A stretch of DNA of 64,000 nt, taken from positions 800,001 through 864,000 of the forward strand of contig CAWCAG010000009.1 in the NCBI GenBank assembly GCA_963793425.1, given 5' to 3'. This document shows, one piece after another, positions 15,001 through 24,000 of the stretch. Source of the stretch: an uncultured cyanobacterium (GTDB lineage: Bacteria; Cyanobacteriota; Cyanobacteriia; Cyanobacteriales; CAWCAG01). The position numbers were made by a program. Position 1 is the stretch's first letter. Every line of letters begins with the position of its first letter.

Positions 15001-18000
15001 AATAAGTATTACTTCAGGAGAATATTTGGTTTTAGATTACCGTTTAGAAGAACGGCACTACTGGGTAAAATGGCCTGATAATAGCAAGGGAAATCGTTAT
15101 GAGCATTTTATTTTTGAAGCAGATGCTGAAATTATCCCGACTGAGAATTGATCAATCCTAAGTAATGCAATACAAACCCCAGTTTAATCCTTGTTACTCT
15201 ATTGAAACTATAGAACCAAATCAGGTCTTCTTCTTATCTGAAAGAGAAAAAGCTTGGTTGTGTAATCGCCTATCTTATGATTTAGCTAATTTAATCGATG
15301 GCGATCGCACTAATGACGAAATTATTGATACCCTACAACAGTTACTACTACAAGACCCAAAAACTTTACAGCAAGCCAGTACTTTCTTCCAAGAAGTTCT
15401 TAATGTGAGTCTGCAAGCTCAATCTGCCTTATTGCAAATGCAACAGCAAGGCTATCTTGTTGAAAAAGATAACTCTATTCCATCTCACTTAAGCATCTTC
15501 TGCCATCATCTCAATATTGCTCCTAACCTAGCCCAGCAACGCTTGCAAACGATTAAAGTTGCTGTGAAAACTTGCGGTTCAGTTGCGACTGAGGACTTTG
15601 TTGCTACCCTTGAGTCTTTACAAATTCAAGTAGCAGAAGAAGGTGATTTAACAGTAGTCTTAACCGATAACTATCTCAATCCTCAGCTAGATAAATTTAA
15701 CCAACAATCCCTCGAATCTAAATCTCCCTGGTTGCTGGTTAAACCAGTAGGGACAATAGTTTGGCTCGGCCCCTTATTTCACCCCAACAAAACTGGCTGT
15801 TGGCAATGCTTAGCCAAGCGTCTGCGAGATAATCGACCGATTGAAGGGTTTATAGAAAGACAAAAAGAAACTTCTTCTCCTTTAACGACTCCTTTAGGCT
15901 TCTTACCATCTACAGTGCAAACTGCATTGGGAATGGCTGCTACAGAAGTGTTCAAATGGATTATTCAAGGAGAAAATCAACAATTAGAAAATAACTTACT
16001 TACTTACGATAATATTACCCTGCAAACCCAACATCATTCTTGGGTTAAGCGTCCTCAATGTTCTAGCTGTGGAGAACAAAAAAATAGCTTACTCAAACCT
16101 ATTGTTTTACAACATCGTCAGAAAAACTTCACTGCTGACGGAGGACATCGCATCTGTTCACCCCAAGAAACTCTTAGGAAATACCAACATCATATTAGCC
16201 CCATTACTGGCATTGTACGGGAACTAAACAAGATTCCTGTCAACAGCTTAACTCACAACTACATCGCTAAACATCATTTCTTAAGTACTTTCGATAATGT
16301 AGCTAGTTTGCAGCAAAACTTGGGGGGTAGAAGTGCAGGGAAAGGTAGGACTAACTCTCAAGCAATGGCTAGCGGTTTTTGTGAAGCAATTGAACGCTAT
16401 TCTGGGGTATTTCAAGGGGATGAAGTTAGGCAAAAAGGTAGTTATCTGCAAATGGGAGACAAAGCTATACATCCCAACGCTTGTATGAACTTTAGTCAAC
16501 GGCAATATCACCAGAGAAAACAATGGAATCTTGAATGTCAAGGCTGGTTTCAAAAAGTACCTGAACCCTTTGAGGAAGATAGAGTTATTGATTGGACTCC
16601 GGTTTGGTCTTTAACTCACCAGGAATTTAAGTATTTGCCCACAGCGTACTGTTATTATGGCTATCAAACAGACTATCAAACAGACTGTTGGGCTGATTCT
16701 AATGGTTGTGCCACGGGAAATACCATTGAAGAAGCGATTCTGCAAGGATTTATGGAATTAGTGGAGCGGGATGCTGTTGCTTTGTGGTGGTATAACTGTC
16801 TGCAAAAACCCCAAGTAGATTTAGACAGTTTTGATGAGCCTTACTTTCAAAGTCTGAAGCAATATTATCAAACAATTAACCGAGAAATTTGGGTTTTAGA
16901 TATTACCAGTGATTTGCACATTCCTGTCTTTGCTGCGATTAGTCGGAAAAAGGATAGCAAGGTAGAAAATATTGTCTTGGGCTATGGCGCTCATTTTGAT
17001 GCCAAGATTGCCATTAGTCGGGCTTTGACTGAAGTTAACCAAATTTTACCTAACGTCTTATTTACCAAAGCAGATGGTAGTACGAATTATCCCCCATCGG
17101 CGGATACCTTGGCTGTGGACTGGTGGCAAACTGCCACTGTAGCCGATCAATCTTATTTAGTCCCAGATGAGCGAATTGCGGTCAAAGTTAGCAATGATTA
17201 TCCTCAAATGGCCAGTGACGATTTACTTGAAGATGTCAAGCTTTGTCAGAAAATGGTTGAGAAAAACGGTATGGAAATGCTGGTTTTAGACCAAACTCGT
17301 GCTGATATTGGTTTAAGAGTTGCTAAGGTAGTTGTTCCGGGAATGCGCCATATGTGGCAAAGGTTAGCACCCGGAAGGCTGTATGAGGTTCCGGTGAAAA
17401 TGGGTTGGTTGCTAAAACCATTAGCCCAAGAGCAACTCAATTCTTTTCCGATGTGGATGTAAACATCTCCTTTCTCACGAATGTTATTTTCCATGAGTTT
17501 TTATATGAGTTTTATAGGTTGTTACTTATCAAACCGTGAATAACAATACTGACAAGATAAGCAGGATGTCTATTAAATGAAAAGCCTAGTTTTCTCTCAA
17601 CTCCTTGAATAAGTCAATTCTGCACAAACAGAAATTTAATCAGTTATCAGGAGAAGTAAGCAGATGACCAGCAATCCGAGCCTAGCAACTGTTTCAGCCA
17701 GTAGTATCACTGATATTTCAGCCTTGCCTGGTCTAAAATCCCTTTGGGCTGAAACTCTAGGAGATCCTCGGATTTGCGTAGCGATTCTTGACGGCCCTGT
17801 TGACCAATCCCACCCGTGTTTAGAAAATGCTCAACTAAAAAGACTACCCAGTTTAGTATCAGACCATGCTGGTAAAGGTATTATGTCTGCTCACGGTACT
17901 CATATTACCAGTACAATTTTTGCTCAACCTAGTGGAGACGTTCGTGGTATTGCACCTGAATGTCGCGGTCTGATAATTCCTGTGTTTTCCGACAACGGAA

Positions 18001-21000: not shown

Positions 21001-24000
21001 TTAAGAGTTGCAGTTGACTCTTGCGGCTGTCATATATTTTCTGGAACTTCAATGTCTCAATGTCTAGCAGTTTGCGGCTTAGTATAGAGCCAAAAACAAC
21101 AAAAAGCTTAATCTTTTTGGGTATAAAGAAGGAGAAATAAATGTCGTTGCAGTGTATACAGCAGACTATTAGGCAAGAAATAAAAACTAGAGAAGTTCAA
21201 AGAGAAAGTATAACAGAACGCATATTTAAGCTTTATCTACAAGGACTAAAAAACGGGAAAAACAAAGAAGATAAACAATATGAAACTTTGTTTAACAAAA
21301 TAGATAGTACAGCTCATTGGAAGCAACGTCTTGATAGTTCTCATAGTAAAGAAATGTGGCTTAAGAAACTTGAGAGGATAGCAGAAAAACTTGAATTTCA
21401 AATAACTAAAAAAGAGAGTAAAGCACTTGAGAAAGTAGTCTGCCAGCTTAATCACAATTGGGGTGAGCATTGGGAAAGAGGACGGATCTGGGCATAAGTC
21501 AAAGTTGAAATATTGTTCTTCAAGTGTGATTGCTCAGGACAAATTAATTGCAGATTATGCTCCAAGAATATAGGATTATTGATGCAGACTCCCATGTGGT
21601 TGAACCTCTAATTATGTGGGGTGAGTATCTCGAACCAGAATTCCAAAAGTTTGCACCTTCAATAGATATGAAAATGCAAGGGGAAGAGATTGTCGAAAAG
21701 GTGTCTAAGCAAGTTAGCGCTATCGGCAATAGGCAAATGATGCAGGCTCATCCTCATGCTTATTTCCAAGGCTATAGTGTTAAGTCTCACCTGGAAGAAA
21801 TGATAAAGATGGGTGTGGATGTGGCTTTTCTTTATCCAACTTATGGGTTGTGGCTTTGGGCGATAGATTCTATGCAACCGGAAGTTGCGGGGGCTTTTAC
21901 CCGTGCCTATAACAAGTGGTTAAAGTACTTTTGCGGCCATGCTCCAGATAGGTTGCAAGGGGTAGGAGCAATCAATCTGCACGCCCCAGAAACCCTGGTA
22001 GGCCAGTTACATCAGATTGCTGATTTTGGTTGGAAAGCGGTGTTTGTACGTCCCAACCCCATCAAAGGAAGACTGTTGAGTGACTCTGCTTATGAGCCTT
22101 TTTGGACAGAATGCGAACAGTTAGGTATAGCAGTTGGCATTCACGAAGGGACTCACTCTCGTTTGCCCACTACTGGCACAGATAGGTTTAACACTCGCTT
22201 TTCGCTAATGGGGGAGCGCAACAAGGCTTTCTCATCCTGGAAAAAGAGGAGCAATGGGTAATTGAAGCGGAAGGGACGATAGATTCTGAGCAGATTACTT
22301 TAGGGCGATCGCGCCCGATCAACTCTGTAGATACTGACACCCAGATACCAATCCTACCAGTTGCCGTAGTTAACTATGTTATTCGTACTCAAGAAAACGT
22401 CGTTTTAGACAATGCTGCACAAGAAGAACAATTTAGCCGTGATCGCTACATTGTGTCAACTCAACCCAAATCGATTCTCTGTACCCCTTTGTTACATCAA
22501 GGCAAGCTAAGGGGCATCTTATACTTAGAAAACAACTTAACCACAGGGGCATTTACTAGCGATCGCATTGAAACCTTAAGAATTCTCTCTGCCCAAGCTG
22601 CTATTTCCCTGGAAAATGCCCAACTCTACGCCCAACTAGAAGATGCTAACCGCAACCTAGAACAAAGAGTAACACAGCGCACCCAAGAACTCTCCCAAAC
22701 CCTAGAAATCCTCAAAGCTACCCAAGCCGAACTGATCTTTGAAAACGAGTTACTCAGAAGTGCCGAACAACCTTCTAACTTTGACTACCAAGTGGGGGGG
22801 AGTTTGCCCATGGATGCTCCCACCTATGTGGTGCGATCAGCAGATCGTTCCCTCTACAAAGCTTTGCAGCAGGGGCAAGTTTGTTATATTCTTAATCCTC
22901 GGCAGATGGGAAAATCAAGCCTGATGGTGCGGATGATGCACCACCTGAGACATGAAGGGTTTAGCTGCGGGGCCATTGATCTTACCCGCATTGGTAGCGA
23001 AAACATTACTCCTGAGCAATGGTATAAAGGTTTGACGGTAGAATTATGGCGAAGTTTTGGCTTGTTAAGGAAGGTTAATCTGAGAAGTTGGTGGAATGAA
23101 CAAGGGGATATCTCTCCAGTGCAACGGTTAAGCCAATTTATTGAAGAGATTTTGCTGGTTGAAGTTGGTCAAAGCGATGACACTTTGCCGAAAAACCTGA
23201 TTGTTTTTATTGATGAAATTGATAGCTTTTTAAGCTTGAATTTCCCCGTAAATGACTTTTTCGCTCTCATTCGCTCCTGCTATAACCAACGCAGTATTAA
23301 CCCAGAGTATCGGCGTTTAACCTTTGCTCTTTTTGGCGTTGCTACTCCCGGAAATTTAATTACTGAGCAACAAACAACTCCCTTCAACATCGGTCAAACT
23401 ATTCAATTAGAAGGCTTCAAAGAGCATGAGGCACAACCTTTACTGCAAGGATTGGCAGAGAAAGTAACTAATCCGCAAACACTCTTGAAAGAAGTGTTAG
23501 GTTGGACAAACGGCCAGCCTTTTTTAACTCAAAAGCTTTGTAAACTAATCCGTAATGCTTCTTCTCCCATACCCATTAACCAAGAAGCGGCATGGCTTGC
23601 AAATTTGGTGCAGAAGTCGATAATAGAGAATTGGGAATCACAGGATCAACCAGAGCATTTGCAGACAATACGCGATCGCCTTCTCAAAAGTAAGCGATCA
23701 CCTCAGTTACTAGAAATATATCGACAAATTCTGCATCAGGGAGAAGTTATCGCCGTTGATTCTCCAGTAGAAAAAGAACTGCTTTTGTCAGGGTTAGTGA
23801 TCAAGCAACAGGGAGTTTTGAAGATTCATAATCAGATTTATGAATCTATCTTTAGCCGTAGTTGGCTTGAGTATCACCTTCGCTTTGATGCTTAACTGTA
23901 GCGGTTTGCGATCATTTGTTCAATAATTCCAACTCCAACTGGCAGTAGAAGTGACCTCAACCAATTGGGATGACGATTATATTGACAAACTTGATGAGTA

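Follow-up and report, generated by a model that had tools for sequence, protein, structure and literature searches.

A PatG-less cyanobactin-type cassette predicted to yield linear peptides, inserted beside a YcaO gene in an uncultured cyanobacterium

Overview of the locus

The analyzed window (64,000 nucleotides of contig CAWCAG010000009.1 from an uncultured cyanobacterium) contains at positions 17558-21535 what is probably, on sequence grounds, a self-contained cyanobactin-type cassette that lacks PatG, yields linear peptides and has a foreign YcaO gene as its neighbour. The gene cluster is composite: the cassette is inserted within another conserved locus. An earlier note had described a single cluster composed of a YcaO heterocyclase, a PatA/PatG-family protease, three small precursors, PatB and an Amidohydro_2 gene. 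This gene order and these family assignments were reproduced by ORF and profile analysis (the amidohydrolase as a fragment), but the first and last of these genes fall outside the cassette. The features are as follows.

10987..12342, + strand: AAA_35 STAND-type NTPase (PF14516, 489 bits); lies left of the YcaO locus as a conserved neighbour, outside the cassette
15165..17462, + strand: PatD-like YcaO cyclodehydratase with winged helix/RRE, E1-like (ThiF) and YcaO domains (PF02624, 350 bits; TIGR03604, 272.6 bits)
17558..21535, + strand: inserted cassette of about 3.98 kb with PatA, E1-E3, PatB and a PatC-like gene; at its two ends homology to YcaO-locus relatives breaks off (left) and returns (right)
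17664..19868, + strand: PatA-type N-terminal cyanobactin protease (Peptidase_S8, PatG_D and PatG_C)
19898..20056, + strand: precursor E1, 52 aa; type-1 leader (PKQVAP..R box ... GVEAS) and 18-aa C-terminal core starting GIFD
20244..20405, + strand: precursor E2, 53 aa; type-2 leader ending GVEAS and 18-aa C-terminal core
20567..20746, + strand: precursor E3, 59 aa; type-2 leader with AVEAS at its end; 30-aa C-terminal core, predicted helix
20851..21087, + strand: PatB-family protein (TIGR04220, 79.7 bits; cut-off 55)
21141..21497, + strand: tentative PatC-like protein, 118 aa, placed after PatB and ending GRIWA
21548..22261, + strand: Amidohydro_2 gene, homologous to its 361-aa relatives only up to 22201
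22201..22202, no strand: assembly junction unsupported by public contigs
22453..23895, + strand: C-terminal GAF and AAA_35 part of a giant protein (family matches; syntenic in YcaO-locus relatives)

Insertion into the YcaO-amidohydrolase locus

Comparison with YcaO-locus relatives (blastn) placed the breakpoints of the cassette at 17511-17557 (left) and 21535-21556 (right). Both junctions are bridged by public contigs (X1 record 1, X2 record 3, X3 records 12 and 16, and X4 record 24), which also revealed variant precursor arrays carried by co-occurring strains. All six ORFs of the cassette are intact.

We distinguished 68 YcaO-related loci (59-85% identity), of which 57 contain the amidohydrolase gene; in none of the 68 does PatA, a precursor or PatB lie between the two. 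The insertion site of the cassette is the variable gap between YcaO and amidohydrolase, and the Amidohydro_2 gene, formerly counted as a cluster member, belongs to the YcaO locus. Synteny with the relatives extends leftwards to the AAA_35 gene (e.g. L020, L021 and L036; 69-78% in blastn). On the right, the product of 22453..23895 shares 58% identity with the C-terminal part of a 1623-aa protein of L005, and the giant protein of this locus has a kinase/AAA_16/GAF/AAA_35 architecture.

The junction at 22201 was bridged by no contig in four public runs, all four of which show loose ends on both sides. Its two sides are separated by about 5.9 kb in relatives (e.g. positions 11332 and 17203 of L077), so the junction probably reflects either a misjoin or the loss of about 5.9 kb in this strain.

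The protease and the absence of PatG

The protease scores 781.7 bits on TIGR03895 (cut-off 421). Its nearest solved relative is 4h6w, annotated as “N-terminal cyanobactin protease” (373.7 bits; PatG macrocyclase domains reach 194 bits). The protease domain of the window protein and this A-type enzyme are collinear, and their Asp, His and Ser motifs align; PatG_D/PatG_C is a domain of unknown function. Both the comparison with solved structures and a quick tree place the protein among A-type proteases and apart from PatG.

The genome is 98.6% complete and encodes one PatA/PatG-family protease above the cut-off and one YcaO protein. PatG is thus absent from it, in agreement with the lack of a macrocyclase proposed earlier. 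The same holds for the reported lack of accessory enzymes nearby, as no second protease, oxidase, prenyltransferase or methyltransferase was found among the scanned ORFs of at least 100 aa between positions 6860 and 30968. Exactly one PatA/PatG-family protease was present in four of the five relatives' genomes tested. In a sample of 61 genomes, four had one match above the cut-off and three had two. In the PatA tree, which was built by quick search only, the window protein belongs to a 10-row clade composed solely of PatG-less clusters (SH-aLRT 98). A wider 15-row clade (SH-aLRT 99) adds L091, L092, L093 and two non-cyanobacterial loci, and the PatA proteins of canonical clusters as well as PatG proteins are placed outside both.

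A widespread family of related cassettes

The search recovered 14 PatA relatives. Nine of these, all cyanobacterial (L001-L007, L013 and L014; 58-61% identity), share the same cassette parts, i.e. PatA, PatB, one type-1 and one to three type-2 precursors, and a gene whose product has GRIWA at its end. The PatG-less layout recurs in at least nine genera-level loci, and the cassette belongs to a widespread unnamed family. An LCM-type methyltransferase gene (PF04072/TIGR00027) is added in six of the nine relatives, and L091 also combines PatA and precursors with the LCM gene. A search with the L001 protein found no counterpart of this methyltransferase in the genome under study.

The fourth leader-bearing peptide of the earlier note, named PatB there, retains that assignment, and its N-terminus repeats the precursor leader box (MPKQ..PV.R). 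A 19-nt repeat is common to PatB and the starts of E2 and E3, and PatB proteins of the relatives show the same pattern. The 118-aa gene downstream had been regarded as lacking a family; we assign it tentatively as PatC-like, since in six aligned relatives the genes 3′ of PatB likewise all end GRIW(A/S). It has no TIGR04447 match, and its hhalign alignment to a PatC (itself 66.5 bits on TIGR04447) covers only the last 9 residues, with a probability of 10.8%.

Precursor peptides

Sharing of the leader among the three precursors, noted before, exceeds chance: E2 and E3 have a 69-nt repeat in common (90% identity), and a precursor-family profile run against the whole genome matched exactly E1-E3 (E 1e-17 to 1e-20; 1.4e-20 for E1). 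The E1 leader is nevertheless a different subtype, with 39% identity to E2, compared with 66% between E2 and E3. GVEAS, given in the earlier note as the end of the shared leader, directly precedes the cores of E1 and E2, but E3 has AVEAS. Known precursor models were matched below cut-off only (TIGR04446, 19.5-20.3 bits, cut-off 35); for E2 the values were 19.5 bits on this model and 20.6 bits on DUF5840 (cut-off 25). The weak score of the leaders is confined to TIGR04446, the anacyclamide/piricyclamide precursor model.

As previously reported, the three cores are free of Cys and have no C-terminal motif of the AYD type. Each contains Ser or Thr and forms the last part of its precursor, directly before the stop codon; a follower and a C-terminal recognition sequence (RSIII) are both absent. 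Their net side-chain charges are +3, 0 and +2. The E1 core groups with P0117 on clustering of cores. An AlphaFold2 model of E3 (mean pLDDT 70.8) shows no regular structure over residues 1-31 and a single helix over residues 32-56.

The precursor family comprises 221 members (E≤1e-3) from three phyla, none of them named, and core statistics were obtained for 120 parsed members. Among these, the predicted cleavage site is GVEAS in 64, GVDPS in 29 and GVDAS in seven. The core, with a median length of 22 residues (family range 10-30 aa), reaches the stop codon in all 120, and Cys occurs in two. Gly, Leu, Ala, Ile and Val together account for 58% of core residues, and the cores have a larger helical hydrophobic moment than shuffled sequences (mean z 1.87; z>1 in 87.5%). 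The amphipathicity noted earlier is supported at the level of prediction, and a helix is predicted for E3, but 112 of the 120 cores have a net side-chain charge between -1 and +2 (103 between -1 and +1). The antimicrobial-peptide type proposed earlier thus seems overstated: the cores of the family are mostly near neutral, hydrophobic and amphipathic and do not look like typical cationic antimicrobial peptides. The divergence of the cores had also been overstated, as they sort into conserved subfamilies, the biggest with 57 of the 120 members. Very similar cores were found in Pirellulales and Myxococcota MAGs.

The YcaO protein, probably a neighbour and not a part of the cassette

The YcaO gene had been read as part of the pathway. 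It would then encode the pathway heterocyclase, making a few oxazolines at core Ser or Thr residues before PatA removes the leader. The gene is intact, lies on the same strand 200 bp upstream, and its junction with PatA is real in the population, being spanned by contigs of X1, X2 and X3. Among solved structures its product comes closest to MusD, LynD and TruD (E 1e-200 to 1e-210), all cyanobactin D proteins; it shares about 45% identity with true cyanobactin heterocyclases, and every window core offers a Ser or Thr. Comparative data argue against such a role. No YcaO gene was found in the available flanks of the nine PatA relatives (with less weight for L002 and L007, whose upstream flanks span only 3.4 kb and 1 kb), and none of the 68 YcaO relatives has the cassette; the co-occurrence of YcaO and precursor expected among relatives of a TOMM/azoline RiPP was thus seen in 0/9 and 0/68 loci, respectively. 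In a same-genus genome YcaO adjoins the amidohydrolase gene and a family search detected no PatA-family match. In Calothrix brevissima NIES-22, roughly 5 kb separate this YcaO locus from a canonical cyanobactin cluster, and that cluster brings its own D gene (45% identity). The leaders are short and weakly match only the precursor model of pathways without heterocyclisation, and the cores lack Cys, the preferred substrate residue. We therefore consider participation of YcaO in the pathway unlikely and regard the protein as probably only a neighbour of the cassette.

The presence of cyanobactin-type clusters beside the YcaO locus in two among 69 genomes is above simple-chance expectation, and some link may therefore exist, e.g. 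a shared island or AAA_35 regulators in common.

Predicted maturation and comparison with known systems

With the YcaO protein set aside, we infer the following route for the cassette. Each precursor would be made with a leader some 30 residues long that carries an N-terminal P-x-Q-x-x-P-x-x-R box and terminates in (G/A)-V-E-A-S. The PatA-type subtilase would cut behind this Ser, so that the last 18-30 residues are set free as an uncyclised, linear peptide without heterocycles, which would fold into a hydrophobic amphipathic helix. Cyclisation would be ruled out as impossible, because the genome has no macrocyclase and the precursors have no follower for acyl-enzyme formation. Long linear products, as first suggested, are the natural reading, because (G/A)VEAS fits the PatA cleavage consensus given as G(L/V)E(A/P)S in PMC10885120, the core reaches the stop codon and PatG is absent.

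A cyanobactin cluster is defined in PMC4663559 by A and G proteases, an E precursor, and B and C proteins. Here the A protease, precursors with an N-terminal recognition/cleavage site (RSII) immediately before each core, and PatB are present, whereas G and RSIII are absent. Canonical systems (patellamide, trunkamide, anacyclamide and prenylagaramide) share with the cassette a PatA-type S8 protease whose C-terminal domain has no known function, PatB (and perhaps PatC, going by gene position and the terminal GRIWA motif), and a leader with an N-terminal P-x-Q..P..R box and a G(L/V)E(A/P)S-type site. In contrast to them, the cassette's genome has no PatG macrocyclase, and its precursors have no C-terminal recognition sequence and hold one core each, at the extreme C-terminus. 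The cores of the family (10-30 aa) contain hardly any Cys and, instead of being hypervariable, form conserved subfamilies; the cassettes include no heterocyclase, oxidase or prenyltransferase. The anacyclamide pathway is likewise described as lacking a PatD homolog (PMC2854353).

Linear cyanobactins (aeruginosamides, viridisamide and muscoride) resemble the predicted products in being linear. The known compounds comprise 3-5 residues, have a thiazole end and are prenylated. Unlike the cassette, they derive from multi-core precursors with a LAELSEE leader motif, and their clusters encode a heterocyclase, an oxidase and a C-terminal protease; muscoride uses the YcaO-like MusD for C-terminal trimming. 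The window cores are 18-30 aa long and free of Cys, the scanned ORFs include no methyl- or prenyltransferase, and the YcaO gene is foreign to the cassette family. The LCM-type carboxyl methyltransferase of the relatives recalls the C-terminal methyl ester of aeruginosamides (PMC4663559, PMC11285071).

The S8 proteases NisP and ElxP also remove the leader from a ribosomal peptide (PMC10885120); unlike PatA of the cassette, they act on lanthionine-modified substrates and have no PatG_D/PatG_C domain. The same logic of a leader followed by an unmodified C-terminal core likens the cassette to class II bacteriocins. These unmodified peptides have a double-glycine leader followed by a hydrophobic or amphipathic core, often several per locus, and are processed by a C39 peptidase fused to an ABC exporter. 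The cassette differs in its leader and protease, and no exporter was found.

Possible role of the peptides

We infer that the peptides may be membrane-active, of the bacteriocin or cytolysin kind, or may serve in signalling. An extracellular antimicrobial role is unsupported, because neither exporter nor immunity genes turned up in the window or among the scanned flanks of relatives. This absence would suit another reading, in which maturation proceeds as proposed but the peptides act in the producer: a STAND NTPase would control the protease, which frees a membrane-breaking peptide held inactive by its leader, in a suicide or abortive-infection module comparable to protease-activated gasdermins. 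STAND NTPase genes (NB-ARC/NACHT or AAA_35) lie divergently upstream in six of the nine relatives, AAA_35 genes flank the window's locus, an NB-ARC gene is annotated upstream of a single PatA on Acaryochloris plasmid pREB2, lipase or phospholipase genes lie downstream in three relatives, and PatA scores 72.5 bits on a PADLOC subtilase model. That model is, however, generic, and these genomes are rich in STAND and AAA_35 genes. The upstream STAND proteins of the six relatives match no named defence model, the sole match being to a candidate model (PDC-S27, 24.7 bits, in L002). Such a module seems an unlikely explanation.

That the cassette is a decayed, non-functional canonical cluster left after loss of PatG is very improbable: many cyanobactin clusters are non-functional according to earlier surveys cited in PMC4558948, and the relatives' methyltransferase is missing here too, but the ORFs are all intact, the layout recurs across genera-level loci with a PatA clade of its own, the precursor family keeps its core subfamilies in three phyla, cores ending at the stop throughout indicate design rather than truncation, and co-occurring strains carry variant arrays.

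In the reading that we prefer, a self-contained cassette yielding linear peptides, the LCM-family carboxyl methyltransferase probably methylates the peptides in most relatives. We read the PatG-less, heterocyclase-independent route to linear peptides as new within the cyanobactin machinery.

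Gene content of the cassette locus

The ORF list and family scans confirmed the gene set described in the earlier note: a YcaO gene, a lone PatA/PatG-family protease gene, three small genes, patB and an Amidohydro_2 gene. The small genes (E1, E2 and E3) are precursor genes, each encoding a leader and a C-terminal core.

Features of the locus (positions in the window)
15165–17462, + strand: YcaO, 765 aa, with winged-helix and ThiF-like parts (ORF list, family scans)
17664–19868, + strand: PatA/PatG-family protease (PatA), 734 aa, with Peptidase_S8, PatG_D and PatG_C (TIGR03895, 781.7 bits, cut-off 421)
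19898–20056, + strand: E1, 52 aa, leader ending in GVEAS, core of 18 residues
20244–20405, + strand: E2, 53 aa, leader ending in GVEAS, core of 18 residues
20567–20746, + strand: E3, 59 aa, leader ending in AVEAS, core of 30 residues
+ strand: PatB, 78 aa (TIGR04220, 79.7 bits)
+ strand: gene without family, 118 aa (ORF list, family scans)
+ strand: Amidohydro_2 ORF, 237 aa (family scans)

GVEAS lies directly before the core in E1 and E2, but is replaced by AVEAS in E3. The three cores are indeed free of Cys and of a C-terminal follower, each extending to the stop codon. E2 and E3 have 69 nt in common (90% identity), and a profile of the precursor family matches exactly three sites in the 5.28-Mb genome, those of E1–E3 (E 1e-17 to 1e-20), so the likeness of the leaders is beyond chance. 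The window leaders match, weakly, only the anacyclamide/piricyclamide precursor model.

The host genome (98.6% complete) contains one PatA/PatG-family match above the cut-off and one YcaO. As previously stated, no second protease, oxidase, methyltransferase or prenyltransferase is encoded by the scanned ORFs of at least 100 aa at positions 6860–30968. Neither promoter-like sites (8 vs 9.2 in shuffled sequences) nor terminator-like sites (2 vs 3.6) are in excess between positions 17300 and 21700.

Insertion of the cassette into a YcaO–amidohydrolase locus

The YcaO, used as a query, retrieved 68 loci (59–85% identity). An amidohydrolase gene is present in 57 of them, 56 times downstream of YcaO, and the other 11 are mostly contig ends. 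Typically, an AAA_35 NTPase gene is followed by YcaO, by a gap that ranges from 60 bp to 6.7 kb and varies in its cargo, by the genes for the 361-aa amidohydrolase and a family-less 334-aa protein, and finally by the gene for a giant kinase/AAA_16/GAF/AAA_35 protein. PatA, precursor and PatB genes were found between YcaO and the amidohydrolase in none of the 68 loci. The homology of the window to these loci ends at 17511–17557 and restarts at 21535–21556, and the six cassette genes (PatA to the 118-aa gene) occupy exactly that gap. A genome of the same genus carries YcaO directly beside the amidohydrolase gene and has no PatA-family match in a family search. Since contigs from public sequencing runs span both cassette junctions, the insertion truly exists in the population. 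On sequence comparison, YcaO and the amidohydrolase are part of a locus other than the cassette.

The YcaO locus (L020–L087; window parts 10987–12342, 15165–17462 and 21548–23895) is widespread and conserved, and no precursor was recognised in it. Its YcaO is approximately 45% identical to true cyanobactin heterocyclases. A canonical cyanobactin cluster of Calothrix brevissima NIES-22 (L111, 8581–18890), with PatA, PatB, a G protease and a separate D gene (45% identity to the window YcaO), is located some 5 kb away from this YcaO–amidohydrolase locus and is thus a second instance of cyanobactin-type genes beside it. Because this cluster has its own D gene, the locus-type YcaO is not the cyanobactin D protein. 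The case also cuts the other way, showing that cyanobactin-type clusters land near the YcaO locus more often than by simple chance. A complex prediction for YcaO residues 1–345 (24-row alignment) and E2 (25-row alignment) gave a score of 0.00, which was counted neither way.

The cargo that follows the locus-type YcaO varies by genome, and its flanks carry extra copies of the last ~30–37 YcaO codons and downstream sequence (L025 7944–8018; L027 12011–12094 and 14313–14387; L031 11473–11637; L039 9619–9769; L073 near 12072; window 17437–17557). These look like traces of repeated site-specific insertion at the 3' end of YcaO. At its right end, the window cassette showed no second YcaO-end copy.

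Further downstream, the amidohydrolase homology ends at position 22201 and the C-terminal part of the giant gene begins at 22207, while the matching points in relatives lie about 5.9 kb apart. Among DNA contigs from four public runs (X1–X4, a single study), none spans the 22201–22202 junction; both of its sides continue into other sequence in all four runs, past 22201 as amidohydrolase. A ~5.9-kb deletion inactivating the amidohydrolase gene together with the giant STAND gene was thus withdrawn as an explanation. With no spanning contigs and a continuing amidohydrolase, the truncation is a misjoin or a strain variant and a deletion is not established; the junction probably represents either a misjoin in the assembly or the strain-specific loss of ~5.9 kb.

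A family of PatG-less cassettes

The protease was used as a query against one genome per species and 14 loci were obtained. Nine of these (L001–L007, L013 and L014; 58–61% identity), from Nostoc, Calothrix, Nostochopsis, Xenococcus, Okeania and others, have one common anatomy: PatA followed immediately by a type-1 precursor, together with PatB, one to three type-2 precursors and a 145–315-aa gene without Pfam family whose product ends in GRIW(A/S). A PF04072 gene of the leucine carboxyl methyltransferase (LCM) family (TIGR00027; 284–286 aa) is present in six of the nine. The 118-aa product in the window ends in GRIWA, as in these relatives, and was therefore tentatively designated PatC-like; when the family of post-PatB genes was compared with a PatC by hhalign, the last 9 residues were the sole aligned part. 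YcaO is absent from the flanks of all nine relatives (8 kb; upstream, 3.4 kb in L002 and 1 kb in L007).

Whole-genome searches revealed exactly one PatA/PatG-family protease in four of five relatives' genomes; the fifth, Okeania, has an extra PatA/PatG-family pair on a different contig. Within a sample of 61 related genomes, four have one such match over the cut-off and three have two, and one single-match genome (G042) contains PatA, precursors and the LCM gene. A quick maximum-likelihood tree of PatA/PatG proteins placed the window PatA within a 10-row clade (SH-aLRT 98) made up solely of PatG-less clusters. This clade forms, with L091, L092, L093 and two non-cyanobacterial loci, a 15-row clade (99). 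PatA proteins of canonical clusters constitute a separate clade (97), and PatG proteins are placed elsewhere. The window locus is an ordinary member of the PatG-less variant, made to look more exotic by the adjoining heterocyclase.

Single PatA/PatG-family protease genes also occur on plasmids of Gloeocapsa sp. PCC 7428 (L107) and Acaryochloris marina (pREB2, L108). The unannotated 700 bp behind PatA of the Gloeocapsa plasmid contain a leader-bearing, Cys-rich ORF, and an NB-ARC gene is located upstream of the protease gene in pREB2.

Precursor peptides and their cores

A profile built from 25 precursors and searched against a collection of 5.8 billion proteins detected a family of 221 proteins (E ≤ 1e-3). 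Among the best 120 of the 221, to which the following counts refer, every name given by the source is "hypothetical protein". The site preceding the core is GVEAS in 64, GVDPS in 29, GVDAS in 7, SVEAS in 4 and GIDPS in 4, the remainder being other variants, three of them probably mis-parsed. Cores are 10–94 aa long (median 22; a single fused ORF accounts for the 94-aa value), only two contain Cys, and the net side-chain charge is between −1 and +2 in 112. Gly, Leu, Ala, Ile and Val account for 58% of core residues, and the helical hydrophobic moment of the best 11-residue stretch is higher than in shuffled sequences (mean z 1.87; z > 1 in 87.5%).

Far from being hypervariable, the cores fell into 38 groups on single-linkage clustering with a 55% identity threshold, the largest with 57 members and 30 of them singletons. 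Many cores start with G-hydrophobic-hydrophobic-D, and relatives within the family were found for all three window cores. A similar precursor and core are encoded downstream of PatA in two MAGs, one from Pirellulales and one from Myxococcota. In an AlphaFold2 model of E3 (74-row alignment; mean pLDDT 70.8), residues 1–31 are without regular structure and residues 32–56 form one helix. None of 24 relatives' precursors reached a Pfam cut-off, with sub-threshold DUF5840 matches in seven.

In contigs from runs X1 and X2, the precursor array differs from that of the window at positions 20330–20553 or, delimited more widely, 20330–20666, with other cores and one extra leader copy. The E2 leader is followed by 154 other letters, after which the E3 leader region occurs once more, together with 228 other letters; one loose end continues as GVEAS and a different core. 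Co-occurring strains therefore differ in how many precursors they encode and of which kind.

Some single-PatA clusters encode, additionally or instead, leader-bearing peptides with Cys-containing C-terminal cores (L091 3508–3660; L010 5312–5512; L011 3865–4140; L092; L093; L107 8960–9265; L006 14164–14394; L007 6595–6777). One cyanobacterium, one Pirellulales MAG and one Myxococcota MAG share a conserved motif with two Cys, C-Y-K-L ... C.

The precursor leader box, P-x-Q/L/H-x-x-P-x-x-R, forms the N-terminus of 13 of 14 PatB sequences, including those of three canonical clusters, and the start of the window patB (20851–20895) has a 19-nt repeat in common with the starts of E2 and E3. The box in both PatB and precursors suggests that PatB and the leaders have a common docking partner. 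A CaaX-like reading of the PatB C-terminus was rejected, as the Cys is absent in four relatives.

Predicted maturation and product

A passage in PMC10885120 gives the A protease consensus as cleavage after G(L/V)E(A/P)S, which the (G/A)VEAS of the window precursors fits; the earlier note had proposed GVEAS as the PatA site. The window protease domain aligns with the solved A-type protease 4h6w without large gaps (373.7 bits), with Asp, His and Ser motifs present, whereas its alignment with PatG macrocyclase domains is poorer (194 bits). The A protease would act alone, releasing the long unmodified C-terminal core after (G/A)VEAS. The product had been predicted as long, linear and at most sparsely heterocyclised. 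Its linearity is upheld, since G protease and follower sequence are both absent; heterocycles are presumably not made, because the cassette family works without YcaO and Cys is missing from its cores.

The LCM-family enzyme present in most relatives would probably methylate a peptide carboxyl group, judging from its family name and from the methyl-ester end of aeruginosamides described in passages of PMC4663559 and PMC11285071. This enzyme has no match in the window's genome. Composition and predicted helicity of the cores point to membrane activity, but the peptides are not cationic, and neither exporter nor immunity genes were found in the scanned ORFs of the window or in the scanned flanks of relatives. 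The antimicrobial-peptide type previously suggested is too strong a description.

A possible role in self-permeabilisation

We also considered that the PatG-less cassette might be a protease-triggered self-permeabilisation module and not a secreted-antibiotic pathway, which we regard as quite improbable. In such a module, the leader would hold a pore-forming helix inactive in the cytoplasm; the neighbouring STAND NTPase would sense infection or stress, upon which PatA would free the peptide. It would resemble protease-activated bacterial gasdermins, but with a cyanobactin protease recruited. If true, it would explain the missing exporter and immunity genes and the recurring STAND and lipase neighbours. 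Neither the STAND neighbours nor YcaO matched a named defence model in PADLOC.

Three relatives have a lipase or phospholipase gene on the downstream side of the cassette: Tle1-like (L001 13386–14480), patatin (L013 14927–16078; 180 bits to the PADLOC phospholipase effector model) and GDSL-like (L007 7137–8840). This may be coincidence or a common membrane-targeting theme.

A 699-aa protein encoded in the window (25825–27924), among many STAND-type genes, is nucleotide cyclase-like at its N-terminus and TIR-like in the middle, and a further part of it, from reading the sequence alone, resembles AAA_35 NTPases. It matches PADLOC Pycsar cyclase and TIR models weakly and the NCBIfam Thoeris ThcB4 model with 36.5 bits.

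Relation to known cyanobactin pathways

Small macrocycles and very short linear peptides are the known products of the cyanobactin machinery. The cassette has the A protease, PatB, leader box and cleavage site in common with these pathways, but two of the features that define them, a G protease and a C-terminal recognition sequence, are missing. Compared with the known linear cyanobactins, its cores differ in length and its precursors in design, and heterocycles and prenyl groups would be lacking. In the full-text literature, a scope outside which subscription journals and the main genome survey lie, no description of PatG-less clusters or of these leaders or cores was found; such clusters have possibly been mentioned earlier, perhaps as "incomplete clusters". 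The heterocyclase adjoins the protease here because of the insertion, and cluster callers used in genome mining would merge the inserted cassette with it.

The 221 unnamed precursors and a PatA clade of its own, extending to Planctomycetota and Myxococcota, indicate a separate, widespread branch, in which the A protease alone handles long, conserved C-terminal cores, often beside a carboxyl methyltransferase. If true, this would represent a new class of cyanobacterial peptides of 10–30 residues, provide a leader/protease pair for releasing unmodified peptides, and hint at what PatB and PatC, as yet unexplained, might do.
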